A DNA stretch of 64,000 nt, from NCBI RefSeq assembly GCF_024521635.1, contig NW_026250424.1:124001-188000 (forward strand), given 5' to 3'. Positions within the stretch are counted from its first letter, which is position 1, and each line of letters starts with the position of its first letter. A program made the translations under genes and the position numbers. Of this stretch, positions 40,324 through 61,300 are shown piece after piece. Below the pieces are notes generated by a model. It was not told where the DNA came from and did no database searches. It was given only the letters and a program-made list of their open reading frames with translations. The stretch comes from Tricharina praecox (Eukaryota).

Positions 40324-41624
40324 CTCTGTGGGTCTGTGAGTCCGGGATTCCGAGGGAGGGGCGCGATTGATCACTCGTCGCCGACTCACCGATGTCGACG
40401 GGATTCCACGGATCCGGTTGCGCACGAATCTAGAGGTGGTCCGTGGTCCGTGGTCTGTGGGAGGGAGGATAAGTGAAACGAGGAGACAAAGAAAACTGGC
40501 TTGAGCCTGGCGCCTGGAGCCTGGAGCCTGGAGCGGTCGATTACTGGCCAACCGACCAACCGGCCAAGTGTGGATGCTCTCACTGAGAGACCAAAGAACG
40601 GGTATGGTCAAATAAAACGTGATCAATTGAGCAAGAGGTCTACTATGTACCTATGATGATGATGGTGTCTGTTGTGTTGAACAACAAAAGGATTGACAAT
40701 CAGAACAGAAAAGTTTAAAGCAGCAACAGGAAGAAAACATTTCAACGTTCAACGACCGCATCGGTCTGCATCGGGTCCCACCAGGTCTCAATAAGGTCTC
40801 AATAAGGTCTCCTCTCTCCAGCACTCATCATTGGAACTTGGAAGTGGTGAATCACCCAAACCAAACCGTGAGGGTAATCGTCACGGCTGGCACAAAGAGA
40901 ACTTGTTGAAGAGATGACAGCGATCTGGAATCGTTTACTGTACCGTGTATCTAACTTGTAGGTATTGTACAAAGGTATGATAGGTACCAGTACTCAAGTT
41001 ATACATAAAGAGAAGAGCATTCCGTCACATACCTAGCTGGACTCGGCGTAGGTATACCGTATCCGGCCGGCGGGGATAGGGTTTCTATCATAGCGCGTAT
41101 GCGGCGGCCGGCGCTGCGCTGTGACGCCCGCGGCCAAATAATCTTTGATGCTTATCGAAGCGCTGACTCTCCGGTTTCCACGAATGCAATTAAGTGATAT
41201 GCAAACCATGATGAGAATCATGAGATGAGATTGCAAGTCGCCGATACGGTTCGGTGCCGACTCCGAAATAAGCTCTCTCACTCTCATTGTATCATAAGTC
41301 CATTCCACCGTCCTCGCCCTCGGGCCCCATACACAAAGAAATCCGAAACAAAAAACTCCATCGACACCGACCTGACCTGACCTGACCTGCCCGCTCCATC
41401 GCCGCTCATACTCGCGTGGAAAATCATATCTCAACTCCAAAAACCAGATCCTGCTCCTAGGCACAAACAAAACAAAAGACAAAGAACAGGGAGAAAGCTA
41501 AGGTATGTAGGTATGTACAGGAATTACTCAAACATTCAGACATTAGGAGTTAGTTAGGTAGTCGTCAAGGTAGTTGGCGTCATGAATCATTATTCGCACT
41601 CGCACCCGCGAAAGAAGTTGGCAG

Positions 41625-41952
41625 TTACTTAGGAAGCTTAGAAGAAGCCATGGAGGCGACGCTCTTCCTCCCGTCCAAGTCGGTGCTGCCACGCCGCCCC
41701 CCGCCCCAGCAGCAGCACCCGACCGGATCACGGATCGCGGCGCCGATGTCGGCGAACCACTTCTTGCAGGCGGGGAGGGTGGTGACTACGTATATCAATC
41801 CGTTCCAGAAACCTTGTGCGGGGAGCACCATTGCGGCGGCAAAGTTGAGTCCAAACTGGGAGGCGTTCGGCTCCATCAGGTTGTAGAGGCGGTTGATGCT
41901 CGAGGGCAGCTGGGATTCGTTAGTATTCGGTGAGAGGGTGGGGTGAGGGTGG

Positions 41953-41983
<31 letters not shown>

Positions 41984-43080
41984 GAAGAGGGGAAGAGGGG
42001 AAGAGTGAGGCGAACCCAGGTTATCAGCAGCGCGAGAAAGAATAGCATCGCGCAGCGACAATACGCCCACGCAGCGGTGTTTGCCTCGACAGCGCTGTTG
42101 CCGGACCTCGGTCGCGCGGTCGGCGTACAGCTCCTGCCTGGGCGTATGGCTTCGATATGGCACGTATACCCCGTGATGTGTGGCATGATATCCCTGGTGA
42201 GGCCCGGGAATGTCCCCGGCGGTGTGTTTTGTCGGGGGATTAGATCGCTGGCTCGGATGGTGGCTGACTCCACCGTGTCCACGGTTGTTACCTCGATCCG
42301 TCCGGGGGTGACTCGGGGGACGGCAGATTCCCGTAGCGAGGAGTGGGGGTCTTTGGCGAAGCGCCGGAGGTTCTTGCGTAGTTGCATGATTATGCGGCCG
42401 GCCAGAACGTAGATTATGAACGTTGCTGCCAGTACAACCCTACATACGAATCCCCTCGTCAGAGCATGGTCGGAGAAATGGAGTCCGGAGAGGAACATAT
42501 GTACCATACTGGGCCGTAAAAAGCGGCGATTCTCAGAACCTGCCAGTCACGATCGATCCAGCACCACAAAGTGGCTTCACCGTAGATCGGACCTTTCTTC
42601 GAGCCGATGAAGAGGAAAGTGAGGCTGGGGACTAATGGGATGCCGTAGCAGAGGATGATGTATATTGGCTCCAGCACCCGTAATTGCTTCGTGGTCTTTT
42701 TGCGGAACACGGTGAGGTATACATTCCATGCCATAGCCAGACACTGTGCCATATAAATGAGCTATAAGACAACATGCGGAGGATGAGGAACGACGTACAA
42801 AGAGTGCATCCGCCGGTATAGCCCATTGAATTATCGCCGCCTGCGCTTGACACATGCGGGACTCCCTGCCCTGCCTGATTCCCTCGCGCGAGTATATAGT
42901 GGCGGCATTCGTGAGTATGTTTCCGAAGGAAGCGTAGAAGGCGAGTCGGTTTATCGGCCGGTGAAAGTTCTTGCTTGTGCAGAAGGTAAGGATGATGAAA
43001 CTGGCACCGACGAGCGAGAAGGCGGATGAGATCCGCGATGTCCGCTCGAAGATGTCGAGATGGCTCTGCGGGAAAGGCAT
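41625..43080 (-). CDS. cAMP-receptor-like G-protein-coupled receptor, 4 exons (an upstream ATG at 43182 is possible)
   Basis: SAFSLVGASFIILTF, RPINRLAFYASFGN, CQAQAAIIQW, MAWNVYLT, YGEATLWCWI..WQVLRIAAFYGPVW, LFFLALLITW-LPSSINRLY, LPAQGFWNGLIYVVT. Confidence 0.9.
41932..42005. repeat. (TGAGGG)n / GGGGAAGA G-rich repeat within the last GPCR intron
   Basis: Tandem GAGGGT units visible directly. Confidence 0.85.
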
Positions 43081-46000
43081 TCCGGATCTCGGACGCAGCG
43101 TGTATGGACTTGAAACCACCTGAAGCGCGCAACCGGTCAGCCCGGCATCATATAGAGCGAGAATCCGTGTTCCATTCAACATGGCGCCAATGAACTCACT
43201 TATTATTATTTTTCTGAAGTGGGACTATACGCGGTAGTAACGTGATACAATCTAATTCACGATGGCGATGATGGGCGAAGTGGGAATCCGGATCATTTCT
43301 CGATGCTGGAACTGCAGTGGACACCAGCAAGGGCCGGAACAAGAAATAATCGCACGGGCGCGACGCGCCGCTATATGTATGCATCATATCCGGGGTTGCT
43401 CCCAGCTCCAGCATCGCATCGTCCTTACGGGCGAGTGTTGAGATGGTGGTGGTGGTGTGCTTGTCAGTCATGTTGCTGATGCAGTCTGGTCTCACCAGAG
43501 GAGGCGAGGGTGGTGATGGTGGCTCACCGTGGGGTTGGAACTTGGAGGCTATCCTCTCTTGGCGACCCCCAAAGAAACGGCCAATTATATCACCGTGCAG
43601 GCGACAATGGCTTAGGCTCGCAGATCAGTCAGTCCATTGGACAACCTGGCGAAAAGGCGTAAGGCGACTGGTACCCGATTAAAAACAAGCATGATGGAAA
43701 TCGGTACTATGGTCATGCAAGACTAAATTTAATCGTCATCCATGAACTCGTGAACTCATTATATAGTGGATAGGCTCTCACACTATGGCGGTCGAAAAGT
43801 GATCGAATAGGTAGGCTGCCAAACATCGATCGGATTGCGAAAGGCCAAAGTTCGAGGTATTGTGTAAGAGGAACTTGCCGGCGAAAGGCCAATGGGCAAT
43901 TGTGCATAGCGACAAGAGAGCGAGAATGAGTCGGTCCATACGCCACAGAATAAGATCCCGACCGCCCTCGACAAAGCGGAAGTGCAGGAGCAGAACAGAT
44001 TCGAGTCAACCCATGTTCTACTGTGAAATCCATCCACTTATTGACTTCACCTACTGTCATGCCATACCTGGGCATTGGCACCGAGACACACACGTACCTA
44101 TAGGCGCCAGTTGACAACCCGGTTGGTCAGGGCAGCAGCCACAAAGTCAGCATAACCACTGGACTCCGCTGCCTACAACCATGCGAGGCCCGGCCCCTCC
44201 TGCGTGAAGTTGATCGAGGCGGGTGCCCGTCTAATCGTCTGTCCTTTGGACAAATGCACATCATTGACCTTTCAGCGACCACTTTCGACCGCTGTAAGTA
44301 CACATTCAAGTGAGGGAAACAGGACGTGAGCACCATCCAACAGCATCAACATAGAAGCGAAAATTCTAAGATTTCAAAAGAGCGGTAGTTAACAATGATG
44401 TTACCAATTCTTACTATTCCCAGCATACCGTAGGCATGTGTGTGCCAAACTCGGCTAATCATCTAACAGCACTCCCTCCCTCCGGTATGTACCACGTTTC
44501 GCAATGAACACGCACCGCAACAGCTCCATGTATATCGAGGCCGTGATCCGTTGTGTCAGCAAGACCGCACGACGTTTTCCTCTCAACCGTGCGGGGTTCT
44601 TGATTTCACCGCGCATATATAGGCGACGCTAATTAACTAGTGGGCACGGGTAGAGCCGTCGGTTCAAGATTGGAGAAACCGGGCAGCACTTTCTTCAAGC
44701 CACAACGTCATGCACCGGCCGCGAGCCTACGGCCTCCCCATCGAGAGGTGGAATCAACATCTTTTCCTGCGTCGGCCTTCTGCGACCCCCTCGGACCTCC
44801 TCACCCTCGATTTACACAGACCTCGACTCCCCCAGTGGGGGTGCTCGCCGCTCGGAGCCCTTGGTAGGTATGCAAACATGAGTGCAGGCTGCAGCTTTCT
44901 ATGGATCCTTTGTATTTGTGCCCCGCCGAACAGCACTGCCGCGCTGACCAAAGCGGCGACGGGGTACGGTATGTATGTATACTTGATTCAAATGCTGAAA
45001 GAAACCACCAATGCAGCCTTGCAAAAATGACATCGAAGACCAGTTCCGAAACTGCGGTAGATGCCTACTCCACTCGCCACCGTCTTCGGTTTCACCAGGA
45101 ACGCCAAAATGATGGAACCGGAAGCGACGCTTGTAATAGTAGGTATGGTATGGTAACACCTCTAGACACAAGTTGCTTTCCGGATAAACAAACAGACGAT
45201 GCGACTGAAAACAGCCGCCAGGTACATATCTACATACCGGCTGTTGGCTTCCGCGTTGTCGTGCTCTCTCTGTAGTGTGACGAGTTGGCAGCTGTATCGG
45301 AGGCAGTCAAACGCTGTGGCAGCTGGGCCACCGCCAAATGTGATCATGATTCACGACTGATCCAGAGAATGTCCAGCCGGTTATGCAGATTTGAACTTTT
45401 GAAGAGGCCCAGTCACCGCTCAGCAGATCTATTGAGCTGATTGACTGGCTAGAGTTCCATAGAACTCGCGAGATGTTCGTCAACAACCGTGTGGGAAAAC
45501 GGGGTTCAGCAGCGAAAGCCCATCCTTGATAGCCACGGCCACGGCGGCCAATTGCATTGTACATAAACGCAACCCGTCACGACGAATAACGAACGATATC
45601 GATCCTCTTGAGATATGTGATGGAATTTCCTCCGTTCTCGCAGCGAGAAATCCGATCCCAACACCACAATCGCTTTTCACTTTTCACTTTTCGCTTATGC
45701 ATCTGCATCCTCGACGCGGATTTCAGACAATTCACAGGTAAGCAGAGCAACTACCTACTCGGACGAGAAAACCCCTCGATTTAGATCGCAGAGAAACATG
45801 CTCTCTACCTAGCGTGCTGATAGGATGGTGGGGTGCGTTAAGCGAGAACAAGTGCAGTGGGGAGTGGGGCTGAGCCGCGTGCGGGGTGGTACGTAGCCTG
45901 GTATGTAGGCAAGCTTTGCTGGTGGGCCGGCCCAGGAACGACACGACACACGCGTGCAGGACATTCCCGGGCGAACCCTGAAACTTGTCCTGTCGTTGTC

Positions 46001-48021: not shown

Positions 48022-51000
48022 ATGGCGTTCACGATCGATACACTACGGCTCGAGATAGGGAAGCTCCACCAACAATCCGTTGATGGCCGGTCTTTCGTCG
48101 ATCCGCACGACCTCAAGTCACTTCTATCGCGGCGGGCAATCGCGGAGGTTATACACCTTTGCGCGGTTCCGGACTGGCAACGATCGAGCATGGTCGACAT
48201 CATTTTCGACAGGGGTCGCGTGCTCTTTGGCATCCTCGTCTGGAAGAAATGGCATCGCGGTCTCACGGGATTCATCGAGCACGATGCACTCGATGATGCG
48301 CTGCCGCTTGACGAAGCGAGGGCCATGTTGATTTCTGGGACCTTTGGTTGGGAGTTTGCACGGCACATTCAATGGGAGTTTCTGCCGAGGGTGTTGCTCC
48401 GAGAGATGAGCGATCACCATTATCATTTCCATAAGGACGAGATCCTGCCGTTTACGAACGAGGCTTTCTTGGGGAACGGCTTCTTCGGCACTGTACACAA
48501 GATGTCGGTAGTACCTTCATTGCAGACCATCTTTCCAAAACAGGTGTGTTGATCCACAGCGAGTCCATGGTGTACGATCCTAAGAGGTTCGGCTCAGACA
48601 TCGCAAGTTTTCATGGTCAGAAAGACGCTCCAGCATGGAAAATATCTCGAGCGAGAAATGGAAACTCTGCGGATCCTCCATCGGCTACAGCACCCCAACG
48701 TAGTAAAGCTCTTAGGCACATACACGTACCAGGATCGCCACCACTTCCTATTCCCTCTATACGAAGTGGATTTAGAGACGTTTCTAGCCCTTCCACAGCG
48801 TCACGGAGGGTTCGAGAAAGATTACACCATCTATACAGCCCTGCAAGGACTTTCATCGGCACTGGAGAATATCCATTCAATTACTCTCAGTACCGGTGAC
48901 CACGACACGGAGCTCAACCGAATCGGCTACCACCATGATATCGGGCCCGCAAATATCCTCGTCGACTCGAAGACGTTCTATCTCGCCGATTTTGGGTACG
49001 CAAAGACAAAGTTGGAGGAGGAAAACTCTCAGACAAAGTGGAAATCAGGCCTGGGAGATTATGTAGGGCCGGAATGCATGGATCCGAAGCAAGGGTTGAT
49101 GTATCAACATGTAGGAAGGCCACTGGATATATGGTCGTATGGATGCATGTTGTCGGAGATCGCGGCGTACATACAGGACGGACCGGACGGCGTGAAAAGC
49201 TTCCGAGACCAGCGTTTCGGGGTCGGTTTCTTCCACAATGTGAAGGATCAATATTTCTTCCGAGGCGAGTTCTTGAGGCCGTCGGTTCTTCGTTGGTTCA
49301 ACCAAACAAAAGCGAAATCAAACGATCCAGCGTTCCGGCTTTTGCTCGATGTGGCATTATCAATGCTTAGAATCGACCCCAAACAACGCCCCAAGGCTAA
49401 GCAGGTCAACCTGGAGCTGTCCTTCGTGAGCGCCATGGCCCTTTTTAACGCCGTACAAACTGTTTTCCAACACTACCTCCATGCATTGCAGGCGGCAAAA
49501 GACGCCTCTGGGAAGCCCGACACAATTCAGCTTGAGTATACGCGTTTCACTGCATGGGGGAATGCCCTACAGCTTACGGGAGCCGGTGGTGTTTCGCCCG
49601 ATGATATGGCCGCTGTCGGCGGGATAGAGAGCTCCGTTCGACAGGTTCTGATCGGCTTACTCGGAGAATTTGATCACGCCCCCCAGAACGAAGAATCCAT
49701 GCTGCCTTCCGCGGACATGACTGCCAACCGCAGACCATCCCACGAGCGGATTAGGGACCACATTGACAAGCTGGAGGATTCCCTTCAGAGCTGGTACCGA
49801 GAAAACCCAAGGCAAGCGGGGCTAGAAGATCTGTTGATTCCCAAAAGCTATGCGCCAATTGCGCTGGACGGTATTGGATTAGATTCCCCACCGGATGACT
49901 GTTCAAAACTCAGCACTAGGCTCACATCGAGTAAACTGGAAAACCTACGGCCAGTGACGGTTCAATATCGGTCTGAAATGTCTAGCTCAAAGGCTTTCGA
50001 GATGGAAGCCTTGCGGCTGACTTCGAGCGCGCTCGATATCGCAACACGGTTCGAAGAGGGTATCTCAATCGGTCAGTACAATGAAAAGAACGTCATAATC
50101 GAATGGGTCACTCCTACGGCGAAATGGAGCGCGATGACGACCTCGGAAAGATGTCAGCTGATGCAGCTGATGGCCGAAGATTTCCGTCAACTATCGGGAC
50201 CAGGCGGGCTTCGAGTTCTTGAATGCATTGGTTTCGTGACACCGTCCTTGAATACAACTGGTCCTCGGGATTCTGGCTTTGTTTTTGCGTACCCTCGGCG
50301 TCCATCGGAGCAGGCGGAGCAGGCGGAAGCTGCCGAAGCACCCAAGAAGCTCCACCCGATCAGTCTTTACACAATATTGAAGCAAGGAGACAAATTGAAG
50401 TACCATATTTCGCTCGGAGCGAGGCTCCGGTTGGCACACATGCTAGTCAGCTATGTTCACGAGATGCACTTGGTTGGATGGTTACATGAGGATATGAACT
50501 CCAAGAATGTGGTCTTCTTTCAAGAGGAACTCAAGGGGGGTTGTTCTGATGTCTCGAGGCTATCTGAAGAGCTGGGGAATCCTTACCTGCTCAACTATCA
50601 CCATTCGTGGTCTTCGCCTCGAGAAGGACAAACCGAGGGATCAGCCACCTCAGCAGTGGGAAGCGGGAGTTCGTGCATGCATGCTTCCCAGAACCCAGAG
50701 TATGTCTCCGCCCAACAACACTCCTGCGACTCGTACGACTATCATAGCGTCGGAACAATTCTTCTAGAAATTGGTGGTTGGTATCCGCTGGAAAAGTTTC
50801 TCGCAAACAGCCGTAGGTTGGAATCAAATCCCCCGGCGTTCCGAGACGAGCTGGTCAAAAAATATGCCCCAAGGTTGCGCCACCTTATGGGATCGACGTA
50901 TGCGAATGCAACGCTTGCTTGCCTTTGCAGCAATTTTGGCAGCGGTAGCGGCTCGCGACAGAAGGTCCTTGAGGAGTTCTATGAAAACGTTGTTGGCCCG

Positions 51001-51030
51001 CTGCGAGAACTATCGACTTTCCCGGTATAA
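48022..51030 (+). CDS. Ser/Thr kinase - HeLo-like - kinase-like fusion protein (~984 aa); exons 48022-48543, 48598-51030
   Basis: Kinase 1: GNGFFGTV, VRK, HPNVVKLL, HHDIGPANIL, DFG, YVGPE, DIWSYG. Middle: LEYTRFTAWGNAL. C-terminal: LRVLECIGF, SLGARLRLA, GWLHEDMNSKNVVFF, PYL, DYHSVGTILLEIGGW, MGSTYANATLACL. 54-nt phase-0 GT-AG intron. Confidence 0.88.
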
Positions 51031-51862: not shown

Positions 51863-52161
51863 ATGCAAGAAGTGACATTCGTGAGCAGTCGCTATATGAA
51901 TTTCCCCAAGCTCTATGCGCTCTTGGACAAACTGTTTCCCGGCCAGTGGACCGTGGAGGTGCGTAGGAGCTGTGCGCTGCTACCCCGCGCCGATCAAGAG
52001 TGGCGGCTAAATCATCACAGCACCGCTACGGTCAAGTCCGTATCAAGTCACCCAGAGCCCTCACCAAGGTCCGCCGTCGACACAAAATTCCACTGTCAAG
52101 AGCGAGCATCGCTAAGATCTTCTAGGACCAGCAACATTCCGTTCAGGACTTGGAAGATTGA
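51863..52161 (+). CDS. 59-aa microprotein, 3 exons (51863-51958, 52021-52068, 52126-52161)
   Basis: Two canonical phase-0 introns (GTGCGT..GCTAAA..CAG; GTCCGC..GCTAAG..TAG) give MQEVTFVSSRYMNFPKLYALLDKLFPGQWTVEHRYGQVRIKSPRALTKDQQHSVQDLED. Confidence 0.72.
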
Positions 52162-52713: not shown

Positions 52714-54524
52714 ATGAATACTGTATGTATTGAACCGATGCGCTCGCTTCCAGATTTTGAAGATGGCTAATGGTGACGCCAGGAGGCCCAGGTTCACGGA
52801 TGGGAGAACTACCCTACGGCTACAGCATCGACAAGTGGAATGCTAGATGATTTTCACGAAGTCCGGGAGCTGATAGGGAACTACGGAGATCTATTTGTCC
52901 AGAAACCGTCGGCGATCCATCTGCAGGTCTACCGAGCAAAGGAGGTTTACAATGTTTCTTCCCTCGAAAGCTTAGAATCCTTTCTCAAAGGGGATGGAAG
53001 GGAAACCGAAGGAGAGACGAAATTCTTGTCAGAAGCCCCCCCTGTTTACTCGTGTTGTGATCGGACATTTTAATTGGGGCCCTCTTTTAGTTTCATTACA
53101 CAGACGAATTCATGGACGCGTCTGCAGATATCACTGGAAATGTTCAAGATGCTCTGTCATGTCCACGGTGTCTTTCCGCGATACTTCCAGTCAGTTCTCA
53201 GATTAAGCCTCAAAACTTGCAAAACGTACGAGTATCTCGGCGGTGGATGTTTTCGGCACGTCTCCGTGGCACCCGATCAGCATCAATCGACAATCTTCGG
53301 TAAGTCCTCAAAGACCAGTCTATTCCTTCATTCCTTACTGAAGATTGCCATGCAGAAGTATGCTATAATCTCCGCAAGTTCGAGAGGCATGGCCGTGATG
53401 TACTAGACGATCCGTGGTCGTGTCGACAATGTGCCGTCTATCAAAAATATACCACTGGTGCCCATTCATCTGCGTGGATTTTCATCCAGCTCCCGAAGAC
53501 GACTAGGGAGCTTCTCGGACGAATCCACGAAGCCGGCGAGGATTCACTTTATCGGGCGCCGGCCGCGCACCCTCTGCTTTTGCACCTTCTCCTGCTATGG
53601 TCTTGTGAGAAGACCTGGGAAGAATACATCAGATATCTGGGAAACGAAATAACTGCGATTGTATGTTTTTTAATTCCACTTTCGTCACTTGCCCTAATGC
53701 CAACTCTACAATAGAACGACAAGACATCTTTCCTCAACAACACCTACCGCGAGTCCGACGTGAAACTCACGCACTGCCAGAACATCTGCCGTGTCCAATG
53801 GGAGCTAGAGAATGCTCTTCTACTTCTCGAGGCGAATCTGGATGTTGCCAACACGCTGGTCAAACACTCCAAGAGCATGCACGAAAGTACGGACACGGGG
53901 GTTACACGGGATACTCATGCATCCTTTCTTTCAGAGATTGAGCAGTACCAACGCACGATAGAGTGTCATATGCGGAATATTCAGAAGCACCTACGATTCG
54001 CGACGGTTGTCAACCAGCTAGTATGAACGACTTCTCCTCCTGATCATCTGAGGTGTAGGCTTACAAGACACCCGTAGACGCTGAAAATCCTGGACTTCCA
54101 AAACGACGAGCTCCGCCAAGCGAACAGCAACTCTCTGAAATCCCTCGCCTCCCAAACCGTCTCCGAGAACAAAGCGATGGTGACGATCGCCGAAAAAACG
54201 AAGGCACATTCGCGGATGATGGCGGTAGCCACCTTGATCGCAACAATATACTTGCCCGCAAGCTTCGTAGCGGTCAGTTTCTGCTTCCAATATACCTACC
54301 CCACGTGGCTGGCTGATGAAATTCCGGAATAGTCATTCTTCGGTACCAATATGGTCCAGTACAACACCAAGGCCGATGGAGATGCTTCATCCATTACCGT
54401 AAGGAAGGATGTGTGGGTGTATGTTATGGTGTCGGTGGTGCTGATGGTTTGTACGACGATATCGGCATATTTTCTCACGAGACGTCTAAAGAAGCAGGAT
54501 GAAGCAGATACGATTGGGCTCTGA
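52714..54524 (+). CDS. CorA-like two-TM protein, 6 main exons plus a 3-codon first exon
   Basis: Spliced product has WENYP, FITQTNSWTRLQIS..HGVFP, EVCYNLRKFERHGR..DPWSCRQCAVYQKY, HPLLLH..WEEYI, a long helical stalk, SRMMAVATLIATIYLPASFVA-SFFGTN and a second TM VWVYVMVSVVLMVCT. Introns at ~52723-52782, 53028-53090, 53300-53356, 53661-53714, 54021-54077, 54273-54332. Confidence 0.85.
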
Positions 54525-55490: not shown

Positions 55491-58389
55491 TTATGCGATC
55501 CAGGTGAATGATTCTGCAACCTCGAATTCTACTGATCCACTAGAAGATTGTCAGTCACGATGGACATTGTGATTTGGAGGGGGGTTGGAGCTTACCGGAT
55601 GTCCACAGCGGACGCCGCTACAAGTCCTACGAACTGTCCCTCCTCTGCTATCCAGGCTGACAGGCTCGGGTCGTAATAGCCAACAGCATATTTGTCGATG
55701 GTCATCTCGACAGTTTTTGTCTCACCGGGCTCCAGCGCGACCTTCACGAACGCGGCCAACTCCTTCTCTGGTCGCGGAAGTCGGGACTTGACGTCGCGGA
55801 TGTACAACTGGGCGATCTCTTTACCGGCGACCGTCCCGGTGTTCTTGACCGACACCAGGATGGTCAGTTTTCCGCTGTCGGAAAGCGTGCTGCCGCTGAT
55901 GCTGGGACTGCCGTACTCGAACGTGGTGTACGAGATTCCGTGGCCGAATGCGAACTGCGGTGCAATGTTGAGGCGGTCGTAATGGCGGTACCCAATGAAT
56001 ACGCCTTCGCCGTAGAGGACGCGCTGGTCTTGGCCTGGCCAGTTGTGGTAGGCCGGGTTGTCCTCAAGTCGCTTGGGGAAGGTGACGGGGAGCTTTCCGC
56101 TGGGGTTGACGTTGCCGAGGAGGACGTCGGCGAGGGCGTTTCCGGCTTCCTGGCCTTGGTACCACGCCTGGATGATGGCGGGGACCTCGTTGACCCATGG
56201 CATGGTTATGGGGGTGCCGGACTGGTTGACGACGATGGTGCGGGGATTGGCCTTCGCGACGGCGGCGATGAGGCGGTCCTGGCTGCCGTCCTTGGGAAGG
56301 TCCATGGTCTGCCTATCGTAACCCTCCGACTCCCATTCTGCGTCCAGGCCGACCACGACGATGGCCACATCGGCGCTGGCGGCAACCGCGGCAGCCTCGG
56401 CGACGAAGTCTTTGTCCGGTCGTTCCACGTAGCCGATACGGCATCCGCCGTAGCCATGCGTGGGGCCGGTCTTGCTCGCGGGCCGGACTTCGTTGTTGCT
56501 CTCGATCAGGATCTCATAGACTCCTCCCGCCTCCATGGGCCAGAGCGCGAGCTCCTCCACCGAGCCGTCGAACATGGCTTCGCCCGCATCCGTCCAGTCC
56601 CAGTTGTCGATCAGGAGCTCGCCATTGATGTACATCTTCGCCGGACCGACGCTCGACAGGCCGAAAGTGTGCTTTCCGGTGGTCTCGGGGATGATCTGCG
56701 TCTTCACTCGGAAAGAATACTCGGGAAGAACTTCCTTCGGTGCGTTGTCCCACAGGTACAGATCCGTCTTGGGCCGGTTCTGGATGAACATGGGAGTGCC
56801 TTCGAGTTTGTCGCCCTTGTAGAACTCGAGGATCACTCCAGGCTTGCCCGATGGTGTTGTGCAGATGTTTGATGCCAGTGGGAGCCACTTATCCGTCTGG
56901 GCGCCGGGAGCGTAGACGATCTCCCTATCACCTGCCATCTCCTTGATGGAGTCGTACGGAGTCGTGAGGTAGTATGGCTTCAAACTCGCGCTTCCACCTC
57001 CACCGGCAATGGCCTGTTTCGCGTTCGGGCCGATGATGGCGATTTTCCGCACCTCGGGGCCGATCGGGAGAGTGTGGTTCTCGTTCTTCAGTAGCGTCAG
57101 GCCTTCGTGCCCCGCCTGTCGGATCAGATCCCGCGTCGCCTGGGTATCGATGGATTTCTCCTCCGATTCCGTCCATGGGAGGTCGAAACGCCCACACTTC
57201 TCTATCCAGGTGAGGACACGGGCTGCACACTCATCGATGTCTTGAATTGTGAGCTCTCCCTTCCTGATGGCATCCATCACCTTCTTGCCACGCACTTTTG
57301 ATGGGCCAGGCATTTCTAGATCACAGCCGTACTTGATGGACTCCACGGTCGAGTTCGTTCCACCCCAATCGGACATAACCAGTCTAGGAAGCAAAAAAAA
57401 TTCAGAACCCACACGAGAGGATATAACGAGAAGGAACCCTTACCCATCGTATTTCCACTCGCCACGCAGAACCTTCCGCAGTGTGAATTCATTCATATCC
57501 GCATGTTTGCCATTGACCAAGTTATAGGACGACATAACAGCCCACGGCTTCGCCTCTCTGATGGCGATCTCGAACGGCTTCAGGTACAGTTCTCTCAGCG
57601 GCCTCTCTTCGATGATGGAGTCGACGGTCATTCTCCACGTCTCCTGCTCGTTACCAACATAGTGCTTGATGGTGGCACCCACACCGCCCTCTTGCAGACC
57701 CTTGATGTACGCGGACGAGAGTTTTCCGGTGACAAGCGGATCCTCCGAGAAGGACTCGAAGTTGCGGCCTCCGAGAGGTGAGCGGTGCATGCACACGGTT
57801 GGGGCGAGCAATGCCTGTGCCTGGCGCGCCTTCGTTTCCTCGGCGAGAGTCCTGCCGATGGAGTGGAGGATTTCGGTATTCCAAGTGGCGGCGAGTGATA
57901 TACCACAGGGAAGTAGCGCAGCCTGCGGTCCGTCAGCAACGCGAGTCTTCGCAGGAACTGCCGCCAAACATGGCATGGAATACAAACCGGAGTGCCGTCC
58001 GTGAAGAATTCGCCACGGGCTCCGTTGGGCCCGTCCGTCACCTTCAATGCGGGGATCCCATGTTCCTTGATCTCTTGGGTACGCCAGAAGTCTTGTGCTG
58101 CCAAAAGGGAGACCTAAAAAGCCAATCACGTCAGCACCCTCGCCTCATTCACCCTGCAACACTCGCGCCAGCAGCCAAAGCTAACGGAGTACATTTGCAA
58201 GTAATAGACGGCGAAAAACAAGACCTTCTGCTCCAGTGTCAATTTGGACATCAATTCTCTGACCCTCGGGCTTCGCTCAGGACCATCGTAGGTCTTCACG
58301 GTCGCCCTATTCGACTTCGGACTCGATTTCTTCGTCGCGGTCGACTGCCTGCGTTCCGGCCCTGAACACTTGCTGACGTGGGAACCCAT
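55491..58389 (-). CDS. Glycoside hydrolase family 3 beta-glucosidase (intracellular type, PA14 + Fn3-like domains), multi-exon
   Basis: TDGPNGARG, LGGRNFESFSEDP, IKHY, MSSYN, LVMSDW, DLEMPGP, ESEGYDR, WYQGQE.GNA, PSGKLPVTFP, FGHGISYT, RPEKEL. Last exon ends SFTWIA*. Confidence 0.95.
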
Positions 58390-61300
58390 CTTGACTGTGG
58401 TTCAACAGGCGGGGACTACTTGTCCCGGCCCGTTCAGTGGGGATGTTGGGTTTGGGTGTTTGGGAGTTTTTGTTTCGGCGAAGGAAGGCCTGTACTGTAG
58501 AGATCCCACTGACCAGAGCGAGGCGGCGGCGGAGGGCGGAATTATATATTGAATGTTAATCGCTATTTGTCGGCGTAGCAGCAGGTCAAACAATCCACCA
58601 TTTAGTAGGTGGCGTGCACCGCCGGCTTTATAGGTCGAGCGCCGACGGACAGATATCCCAGAGCTTCCGACCGGACGTGCAAAAAGGCCCACCCCCCGTA
58701 GCTTTCCACATACATACCTTACCTCACCTTACCTTACTTTACCTACTAGCACATAGGGTGCGGGAGAAACGACAAGCCCTACACGGGCCCGGACCGAACG
58801 ATGACAGCAACGCCACCAGGCTGGGAGCGAAACTAAACATGGGGCTTGCTTTCCTTGCCTTCCATCAATCAGTCAATCAATCACTCAATCAATCGGCATG
58901 CTCTAGTTACCCCCCACCCGTCGCGTAGTGGGTAGGTTTACTATCGAACCCCCGCCGAAGGCTAGGTAGATGGGCCGGCTGAGTGGAGTCGACCAACGTA
59001 TGTACGTACGGTGGAGCCAGACGACTGACGGAACTGGGAGGATCCGCCGCGTCCTCGAATTGATCCGTGCGTTGGGCAATGATAGCTAAGCCAGTATGTG
59101 CGGTGCTTGATTGATAGATGAGTATCGCTATAACATGCGTCGGAAAAATTCCTCAGTGTGCAGCTGGGTTCCATCTTTTTTCTGCCCACTGGCGCAGGTG
59201 GTGGCCGCTGGGGAGCAGGAGAGAGTTTTTAGGGGAGGGGGCCTCGCGTCAACGGTTGCCAAGGGCCGGGGCACGTGTGGGGCGGACTGATTGTGTCTAC
59301 AGTTGGGCCCAAGGACTGTGGGGTCCTGGCGGGAAATCCGCGTCGAAGGTCCGGCGTCAAATTTAAAAGGCTTGCGGAGTGGGTAAATCGAGCATGCGTC
59401 TGCCATCCCGCCGACGATCACCCCACCCAGGGCCGCGATCGGTAATGGCGGGCCGTCAGCCGCCGTCTCCAGAGGATCCCTCAAATTGACAATGCTCTAA
59501 CCCTTGCAAGGCAAGCCCCATCCAGCCCCCCTGCCCCTGGCCCTGCCAGCACTAATCTGACCGTTACCAAACAAAAAAACAATCATCACGAAAGTAGTCG
59601 ACGCGCACTGCACTGCACTGCACTGCACTCAGCACCCGTCCCTCGCGGTTGGCACGACCAGCCTGTGTTCTGCGAAGGAACATGCAATGCAAGGTGCGTT
59701 GAATCTCTCCAAATGAAGATACGCGCACCAGAACCCTGGCCGCCGCGAAGATTCGGAGATTTCAATTCATGGTTCTCCCGTTCAACCTGGCGAGAAAAAA
59801 AGCACATTGATCCATATTGCAAAAACCTATTCAACGACATTGACGGCTTGCTTGCGAGCAATCCTCCCCCCATATTTCATATAATCTGCCGTTCACCGTG
59901 TAGTTACATACGTAGGACCGGACTGACTGGCTGACTTGCAATTGGTGGATAGTAGGTAGGTACTAGGTACTTGGGTACATGCCTCGGTGGTAGCGGAGCT
60001 GAGGCGGAGCTGGGGCGGAGCTAGGGCGGACGGCAAGCACCGACATTTGTTTGGTTGCTGTATCTACATGCGCTGCAAGTCTTCTTGCGGTCCAGTAGAG
60101 ACTGCCGAGCTGAAAACGGTAGTGCAGCATATCCCCCGCGTTCACGTAGGTAACTATCTGTGAGGGTCTCTGGCCGGCCAGAGTGCGGACTGAGATGACG
60201 GATGAGACTTCTTCCAAACTCTCTGAAGTGAGCCCCTCTCACAGAGTGTTTACCACGAGCACATGCAATTCATCTCGCGCGACCACCTCGCAATCAAACC
60301 CATGCGAGAAGGAGGACACAATCGTCCATGGCTCTTGGCCCTCAGGCTCCGGTATGTACATACAAATCCCAGGCCTCCCAGAAGAGAATCCCACTACCGT
60401 AGGCCTTACCTTCAACGAAGCCTCTAGTCGATGTGGGTCTTCCATAATCGTGGCTTGCTCTCCCCACCAAGGACTCACGATGTTGATGCTACTCCACAAA
60501 CGGAACTACTTTGGAGCACCAAGCACAACGCTGGCATGTGTGGAAGGCAGCAGCATTCGGTCCGGCTTCACTTATATGCGAACCCGGTGCAGAAGGTATG
60601 TAGGTATGTACCCACAAATGAGGGAGTAGGACAGCAGCGAGGAGTTCTTCCAGTCCCCACGGGCAGACAAGAACGAAGCCATAGTTACATCTAGTCGGTC
60701 GGTCAGCCACTGCCACTGCCCCCTCACCCAGCCCCCCAAACCACCATAGGTATGTACGAACACTAACCAGACAGATATGTACAAACACACCTTTCGTTTC
60801 AATAGGCGTCCAGTCCCGCTCTTCCGGCCAGCCGGAAGAACCCCGATTCGGGCTCTCTGCGCGCGCGGGGGGGAGTCATCCCATATGTTTTAGGGCATAC
60901 CTACCGTATGTTTTGCTGACCCCCGCGCTGGGCGCTGGCTACTGGCTGGCTGGATGTAGGTGCTTATGTATGAGGTATGTACATATAGGCAGCTTTACCT
61001 TTCCGCCTTCCATCCGTCGGGCAAGCGGACGAGAGCCCCACGTCGTCCATATGAAATATCTGACGGTTGATCGCTCCGCCTAGGCTTTATCCGCCTGTCT
61101 GTCGGTGGTCGAGGGGGTAGCACTGGCCGCTCGTGGCACGTGATGGACCCCCTCTCACCGATGTATGTACCTCCCACCGACGTATGTACCTCCTGCTCCT
61201 ACTGCTGCTGCTGCTGCTGCACCTGCTCCTGTTGATGCTCGGAGAGAAGTGAGTGAGCATATACTCCAAACATGCACATGTAACTGTGCACTTACCTCCC

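Follow-up and report, generated by a model that had tools for sequence, protein, structure and literature searches.

A kinase, a HeLo-related helical bundle and a pseudokinase in one spliced gene of the ascomycete Tricharina praecox

We analyzed a 64,000-nucleotide window of the Tricharina praecox genome (contig NW_026250424.1, positions 124,001 to 188,000; coordinates below count from the first base of this window) and concentrated on a forward-strand gene at 48022..51030 that encodes a protein of 984 amino acids. An earlier interpretation made from the DNA letters (hereafter the sequence-only reading) had described this gene as an active-looking kinase fused to an MLKL-like unit of HeLo domain and pseudokinase, and had proposed that it acts either as a self-contained RIPK3-to-MLKL killing switch or as a tandem kinase-pseudokinase sensor.

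A two-exon gene for a kinase-HeLo-pseudokinase protein

The locus is a two-exon ascomycete gene, and its previously given bounds, an ATG at 48022 and a stop at 51030, hold. Exon 1 (48022..48543) encodes residues 1-174, comprising an N-terminal helical cap and the glycine loop of a kinase (GNGFFG, 48472-48489), and exon 2 (48598..51030) encodes residues 175-984 followed by the stop codon. The intervening 54-nucleotide intron (48544..48597; GT..CAG) contains an in-frame stop, and exactly these 54 bases are skipped in spliced contigs of two runs (X1 and X2, presumed to be RNA). Further introns in exon 2 were neither predicted nor present as joints in the contigs of both runs. Because the contigs skip exactly this intron and cross exon 2 without other joints, the fusion is one transcript and no annotation artifact, and the same spliced contigs show that the gene is expressed. 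Furthermore, a Tricharina praecox database protein of 984 amino acids (P0003, “kinase-like domain-containing protein”) was 100% identical over the part searched.

The encoded protein is ordered as cap, kinase, HeLo-related bundle, linker and pseudokinase. An AlphaFold2 model built from 80 sequences (pLDDT 89, pTM 0.86) showed a helical cap at about residues 1-140, the kinase, bundle helices at 441-473, 481-497, 518-540 and 555-568, linker helices, and a second bilobal domain. The cap (48022-48441) matched no Pfam family and had no feature hit in the Atlas; it is common to other ascomycete kinases, and in the Atlas its best structural match was an N-terminus from a different ascomycete kinase cluster (TM 0.77). 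The helical linker (residues ~588-650, 49837..50025, forward strand) is seen in the full-length model and was of low confidence when folded alone; its position suggests a brace-like role.

Kinase 1 (residues ~141-447, 48442..49416, forward strand) is a non-RD kinase with a Pfam Pkinase match at residues 145-444 (E 5.5e-23) and fold matches to kinases at Z ~22. The motifs named in the sequence-only reading were all located, namely the glycine loop at residue 151, beta3 Lys183, the catalytic Asp within HHDIGPAN (286-293), DFG (305-307) and GPE (331-333), and the alphaC Glu194 and the catalytic-loop Asn are present in addition. We compared these positions across kinase-HeLo-pseudokinase proteins, here called the fused family (an alignment of 135 rows, with one 1799-amino-acid member carrying TPR repeats left out). 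Conservation was high at K183 (87/90), E194 (107/108), D288 (134/134), N293 (134/134) and D305 (135/135), and kinase 1 is non-RD in all but 6 members. Position 290, two residues after the catalytic Asp, is Arg in 69 and Lys in 60 of the 135 members; the Gly290 that replaces Lys/Arg in the T. praecox copy is unique among them. The description “active-looking” suits the family, in which 129/134 members keep D-x-K/R-x-x-N together with the DFG Asp, but the T. praecox copy is among the 5 members without a basic residue, and its Gly290 may mean lowered kinase activity. Ser/Thr is conserved in the activation loop at 318 (126/135) and 320 (127/135). By sequence, the closest solved relatives of kinase 1 are NEK7, NEK2 and CDK2; by fold, RIP3 was one of many near-tied matches (Z 21.5, compared with 22.4 for the top match).

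The second bilobal domain (residues ~651-984, 50026..51027, forward strand) is DUF7580-related. It superposed on kinases (model residues 644-984 on TAK1: Z 19.1, root-mean-square deviation 3.1, 255 residues aligned; on ALK: Z 19.3), and the expectation of a degenerate kinase-like domain lacking DFG was thereby confirmed. In the T. praecox copy Glu676 occupies the beta3-Lys position, the catalytic loop reads HED and NYH takes the place of DFG; across the fused family the beta3 residue is Glu in 133/135 members, with mostly HKN/HKS for HRD and GF/GL for DFG. With Glu in place of the beta3 Lys and neither HRD nor DFG, the second fold is therefore a pseudokinase. The T. praecox copy departs from its family at 6 of 39 conserved pseudokinase columns, as much as only 7 of the 134 others, and its close relatives depart at 1-6 of these columns. 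When the C-terminal half was compared as a single sequence with solved structures, only weak kinase matches came up (E>=0.11). A profile of 38 fused pseudokinase copies matched LIMK1, MSK1 and IRAK4 (E 5e-7 to 1e-5), ranking them above MLKL, whereas the profile of stand-alone fungal HeLo-pseudokinase proteins placed MLKL first among kinases (E 3e-5); a special closeness to MLKL was therefore rejected for the fused pseudokinase and holds for the stand-alone profile only. Ser/Thr is present at activation-segment position 853 (50632-50634) in 132/133 fused-family members, and Thr occupies the equivalent place in 21/22 stand-alone proteins. MLKL is activated through activation-loop phosphorylation, as stated in the relevant section of PMC13180255, and T853 is for that reason a natural candidate phosphosite, its conservation fitting a phospho-switch.

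Relation and position of the HeLo-related bundle

The middle of the protein is a HeLo-related helical bundle (residues ~448-587, 49417..49836, forward strand). The LEYTRFTAWG motif at residues 486-495 resembles the HeLo E..R...WG signature, as had been noticed from the letters, and the signature residues (49531-49560) recur in the fused family (E487 in 110/135, R490 in 112/135, W494 in 107/135). A profile of residues 447-641 from the 135 members scored 26-59 bits on all 22 of 22 stand-alone HeLo N-termini, with control maxima of 7.9 bits for shuffled and 5.5 bits for reversed copies, and hhalign aligned the fused bundle with the stand-alone HeLo at a probability of 97.4 (E 1e-11). Furthermore, the C-terminal 530 amino acids align collinearly over their whole length with fungal HeLo+DUF7580 proteins of the stand-alone kind (probability 100, 483 columns). 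The profile of these stand-alone proteins in turn matched HET-s (E 1.5e-11); the fused-family bundle profile gave no match to HET-s or MLKL at E<=10. Judged by these profiles, the bundle is homologous to the HET-S HeLo domain through a two-step link by way of the stand-alone proteins. Pfam HeLo (PF14479) stayed below its gathering score of 23.2: in the T. praecox protein the sub-threshold match lies at residues 448-504, the best score was 18.7 bits (E 0.0016) on the isolated middle region, and on full-length fused members it reached E<=0.1 in 8/41 (best E 0.017). The HeLo assignment, which had rested on the one short motif, is thus borne out by profile homology despite the sub-threshold Pfam score.

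Structure comparison was less specific. Folded alone, the bundle reached a pLDDT of 76, and its top fold match was the coiled-coil domain of Rx (Z 10.7, root-mean-square deviation 2.5, 99 residues aligned), followed by THATCH (9.8), Sw-5b (9.6) and MLA13 (9.6) and, lower, MLKL (8.2 and 8.0), HET-S (6.9) and AtMLKL3 (6.6). Foldseek on the bundle returned nothing at E<=0.001. Because these Z-scores lie in a range common for generic helical bundles, the fold is consistent with a HeLo relation, and the sequence profiles are the real evidence for it. Together with the C-terminal kinase fold, these results establish a kinase, a HeLo-related bundle and a pseudokinase in one chain, so that neither of the two outcomes named as refuting the sequence-only reading came about; this architecture is real, expressed and widespread.

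The bundle is not at a free N-terminus, 447 residues preceding it in one spliced frame. In the AlphaFold2 model the last kinase helix is continuous with HeLo helix 1, forming an amphipathic shared helix at residues 441-473 (49396..49494, forward strand; block pLDDT 94-98), and across the fused family the kinase RP motif and the HeLo Trp lie a fixed 47-63 residues apart. Because the collinear alignment begins at residue 17 of the stand-alone HeLo+DUF7580 proteins, the last kinase helix takes the place of the HeLo membrane helix over its first ~16 residues. The bundle span is also ~60 residues shorter (median 175, versus 237 in the stand-alone proteins). The best 19-residue hydropathy in the helix-1 region had a median of 0.72 in the fused family, with 16/134 members at >=1.2, compared to 1.44 and 19/22 in the stand-alone proteins; the median number of Gly residues was 0 versus 3, and the fused helix is amphipathic. 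An alternative start that would release the bundle was considered and rejected, as no Met is conserved: one occurs anywhere within 438-465 in 62/135 members, at no fixed column.

The passages of Seuring 2012 (PMC3531502) on domain position describe HeLo domains as almost always N-terminal, state that a central HeLo cannot easily insert and that translocation or an additional membrane segment would be required, and suggest that non-N-terminal exceptions are annotation artifacts. The fused family is a large, spliced exception to this rule. According to the published excerpts consulted, a free N-terminus is important for killing by HET-S and MLKL, N-terminally tagged MLKL does not kill, and, in the part of PMC9815663 concerned, death activity is left open where helices precede helix 1. 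Killing by the bundle of the 984-amino-acid protein would need cleavage or a large rearrangement, and a role as a free membrane-inserting pore-former is doubtful. The self-contained RIPK3-to-MLKL killing switch of the sequence-only reading is therefore not supported, given an internal bundle, a helix 1 fused to the kinase, and a family-wide helix without the uncharged, Gly-rich character of free HeLo N-termini; its alternative, the tandem kinase-pseudokinase sensor, fits better. What does stand is the MLKL-like nature of the C-terminal unit, which is collinear with the stand-alone proteins and carries a candidate phosphoacceptor in its pseudokinase activation segment.

Relatives and linked genes

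A search of 50%-identity representatives returned 4699 matches at E<=0.001, and kinase 1 and pseudokinase were both present in 131 of the best 150 of these 4699 clusters; with the query and four closer relatives added, both kinase folds were found in 136 of the 158 examined. The fused family is highly diversified, with more than 130 clusters at <50% identity. Members that could be named (7 of 10 looked up) came from Phialophora, Aspergillus, Bogoriella, Xylariaceae, Purpureocillium, Fusarium and Hypoxylon, and all of these, like a further relative from Trichophaea, are annotated as hypothetical or kinase-like. Among 16 locus pairs, two were divergent, and in these the ratio of nonsynonymous to synonymous substitution (dN/dS) was 0.27-0.44 for each of the three domains; the remaining 14 were too close or too noisy to inform, with one of them at 5.5 for the bundle from very few substitutions.

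The bundle behind the kinase was kept in 19/19 listed relatives without a full pseudokinase match, a set that was found via likeness to the kinase-bundle region, is hence not independent, and includes some fragments. When 18 of these were scanned, NACHT-type domains came next in 5 and DUF7708 in 2 more, and in a tree of 154 kinase-1 domains these 7 forms nested at two places among kinase-HeLo-pseudokinase members. This pattern in the sequences suggests that kinase and bundle are kept together as a unit while the C-terminal slot can be exchanged. Further domain combinations were a kinase-HeLo-pseudokinase protein followed by TPR repeats (P0041, 1799 amino acids) and two kinase-bundle-NACHT proteins with fungal fucose-lectin domains (P0084, P0153).

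Two genes lie directly downstream on the same strand, and all eight of their introns were seen in contigs. A microprotein of 59 amino acids is encoded at 51863..52161 (exons 51863-51958, 52021-52068 and 52126-52161), as defined by splice joints in contigs and the gene model, and a CorA-like membrane protein of 486 amino acids at 52714..54524 (7 exons; six joints in contigs, open frame, hydropathy). The latter has two C-terminal hydrophobic helices and an Atlas score of 0.97 for PF26616, CorA-like, a family found on 56% of the matched Atlas cluster; a Pfam scan of its single exons gave no CorA match. CorA carries a GMN motif, at the place of which the 486-amino-acid protein has GTN. Direct homologue searches with the microprotein gave no candidates, its homologues coming only via fused-family loci. 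A single X1 contig (47900-51956) covers the kinase gene and reaches the spliced exons of the microprotein gene; read-through or a merging of transcripts may explain it, and a contig is no proof of a single transcript.

We followed this linkage in a metagenome scan that gave 379 relatives; 80 were kept, at 68 loci representing 45 distinct genes, of which 21 with short flanks were set aside. At the 24 well-flanked loci (>=4.5 kb on both sides), a CorA-like gene was present within ~7 kb at 16, the microprotein at 10 and at least one of the two at 20, compared to 0 for reversed decoys; across all 45 distinct genes the counts were 26 for CorA-like and 12 for the microprotein. The sequence-only reading had the overall architecture right and missed both linked genes. 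By comparison, the whole T. praecox genome (38.4 Mb) had at least 7 CorA-like matches; one lies ~3 kb from a related kinase (contig C15:29825-33446), and three lie within 13 kb of one another (contig C9:647022-660162). Elsewhere in the window, multi-exon genes on the reverse strand resemble, by eye, a cyclic-AMP-receptor-type G-protein-coupled receptor (41600-43200; two pieces without a convincing Pfam match) and a GH3 beta-glucosidase (55500-58400).

Stand-alone HeLo-pseudokinase genes stand head-to-head with a kinase gene at 3/4 loci of the same genome (2/3 distinct), namely at L083 and its duplicate L084 and at L085, not at L082. On the fused-kinase profile the partner kinases have low scores or none, and they therefore belong to a different kinase family. 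These pairs support a kinase-pseudokinase partnership in general. The pair at L083:890-6056 and L084 (contigs C17 and C52) joins a kinase-ankyrin gene to the stand-alone gene and may be an assembly duplicate; the second pair is at L085:4072-8218 (contig C56).

A candidate kinase switch, its alternatives and known systems

Our best model, which we hold tentatively and put slightly short of probable, is that the 984-amino-acid protein is a pseudokinase-gated fungal kinase switch, intracellular and probably devoted to immunity or non-self recognition, that signals to the linked CorA-like protein. The cap and kinase of a CorA-linked kinase family would have been fused onto an MLKL-like HeLo-pseudokinase protein. 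The pseudokinase would serve as input or brake module, and the bundle, with its helix 1 built into the kinase, as a rigid coupler or oligomerization element rather than a free membrane-inserting domain. On activation, kinase 1 would phosphorylate S318/T320 in its activation loop and T853 in the activation segment of the pseudokinase, and the neighboring CorA-like membrane protein would receive the output, the microprotein acting as cofactor. Whereas the architecture, splicing, expression, family conservation and gene linkage are established by the results above, each of these functional steps is our inference. A broader version, which we consider rather doubtful, would make this a widespread cassette for cell death or immunity in filamentous ascomycetes. 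Its single-chain receptor, an MLKL-like unit with its own kinase and a tethered membrane helix, would control the linked CorA-like channel, helped by the microprotein, and an NLR (NOD-like receptor) sensor could take the place of the pseudokinase.

Several observations weigh against the pseudokinase-gated switch. Linkage does not show a kinase-substrate relation, the CorA-like gene is missing at 8/24 well-flanked loci and both neighbors at 4, and many loci are paralogues from few assemblies, so that the linkage counts overstate independence. The kinase-1 tree was quick and midpoint-rooted, with 64/151 forks open, and fusion of a kinase onto HeLo-NLRs would account for the NACHT forms equally well. 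As for helix 1, the 22 stand-alone proteins used for comparison are mostly of one clade at ~50% identity, and the T. praecox copy itself reaches a hydropathy of 1.42, as high as free HeLo proteins. Conservation of T853, shared with stand-alone MLKL-like proteins, suits equally well an arrangement of RIPK3 and MLKL in one chain, in which kinase 1 would phosphorylate T853 in cis or trans and the bundle, unlatched or cut free, would oligomerize and perforate a membrane. This arrangement draws further on the collinearity of the C-terminal part with proteins whose profile matches HET-s and ranks MLKL first, on bundle fold matches that include Rx, Sw-5b, MLA13, MLKL and HET-S, on the head-to-head gene pairs and on the hydrophobic helix 1 of the T. 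praecox copy. However, the bundle is internal, with neither a linker before it nor a conserved internal start, helix 1 is amphipathic family-wide, and MLKL with an N-terminal tag does not kill. The partner kinases of the head-to-head pairs are of another family, the fused pseudokinase profile puts three other kinases above MLKL, and the bundle Z-scores are generic, THATCH at 9.8 scoring among the best. We thus regard a single-chain RIPK3-MLKL killer as unlikely.

More improbable still is a non-immune signaling role, in which the kinase controls the CorA-like protein for ion or stress homeostasis and the HeLo-pseudokinase part is a purely structural regulator. The tight linkage to the CorA-like gene, the purifying selection in all three domains of the two divergent pairs, and the transcription and splicing of all three genes in both runs would agree with it, but HeLo-related bundles and NACHT, TPR and ANK partners are hallmarks of fungal non-self and cell-death systems, and the high diversification of the family also speaks against such a role. 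It is likewise improbable that the family is a working switch of which the T. praecox copy is catalytically weak or decaying, as a decoy or under relaxed selection. The unique Gly290 and the unusual number of pseudokinase departures would fit such decay; against it stand an intact and spliced frame, a confident AlphaFold2 model, departures at only 2/36 conserved kinase-1 columns, which is typical (62/134 members have as many), and close relatives that depart at pseudokinase columns as well. The 984-amino-acid protein lacks the free N-terminus of an MLKL-like executioner and may act as a related phospho-switch; in sum, an unstudied kinase switch seems a better description of the gene than a self-contained pore-former.

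In the mainly open-access literature, supplements aside, we found no description of a fungal kinase-HeLo-pseudokinase protein or of a kinase-microprotein-CorA cluster, and the three-part fusion is absent from the available excerpts of PMC10197012, PMC12258605, PMC9262711 and PMC11476962. Of fungal HeLo-pseudokinase proteins no more than the architecture is known, and PMC12881547 calls for work on whether fungi have phosphorylation-gated necroptosis-like signaling. With kinase, candidate phosphosite and bundle in one chain, this question becomes addressable with few point mutants, and the gene linkage points to a second possible effector, the CorA-like channel.

The nearest known systems are the fungal proteins that join HeLo or HELL to a kinase-like domain (PF14479 + PF24476 DUF7580); one figure-legend sentence in PMC12881547 notes that some HELL domains are joined to kinase or pseudokinase domains as in MLKL. 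They share the C-terminal unit, degenerate pseudokinase motifs and activation-segment Thr, whereas the T. praecox fusion adds the cap and kinase, has the shorter bundle and is linked to the CorA-like and microprotein genes. With animal MLKL/RIPK3, plant MLKLs and wheat Pm13 it shares the order of bundle, linker and pseudokinase, a candidate activation-segment phosphosite, a supplied kinase and a bundle match at Z ~8, but it is one chain, its bundle is not N-terminal, and sequence comparisons showed no special closeness of either kinase fold to RIPK3 or MLKL; no RHIM was seen, though no search was aimed at one. The HET-S HeLo of Podospora anserina has the E..R...WG signature in common with it and is linked to it in two steps through the stand-alone family; in contrast to HET-S, the fusion has no free N-terminal transmembrane segment, no prion-forming domain and no direct profile match. 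PKinase is listed as an N-terminal domain of fungal NLRs in the relevant part of PMC4986451. Relatives of the T. praecox protein carry the same kinase and bundle before NACHT, whereas the T. praecox protein itself has a pseudokinase in this C-terminal slot and no NTPase. JAK, with JH1 and JH2, and the plant tandem kinase-pseudokinase proteins offer a mechanistic comparison, as they likewise pair a working kinase fold with a dead one in a single chain, and JAK and EGFR-KDD entries were among the fold matches of the 984-amino-acid protein; in the T. praecox fusion, however, a HeLo-related bundle sits between the two kinase folds.

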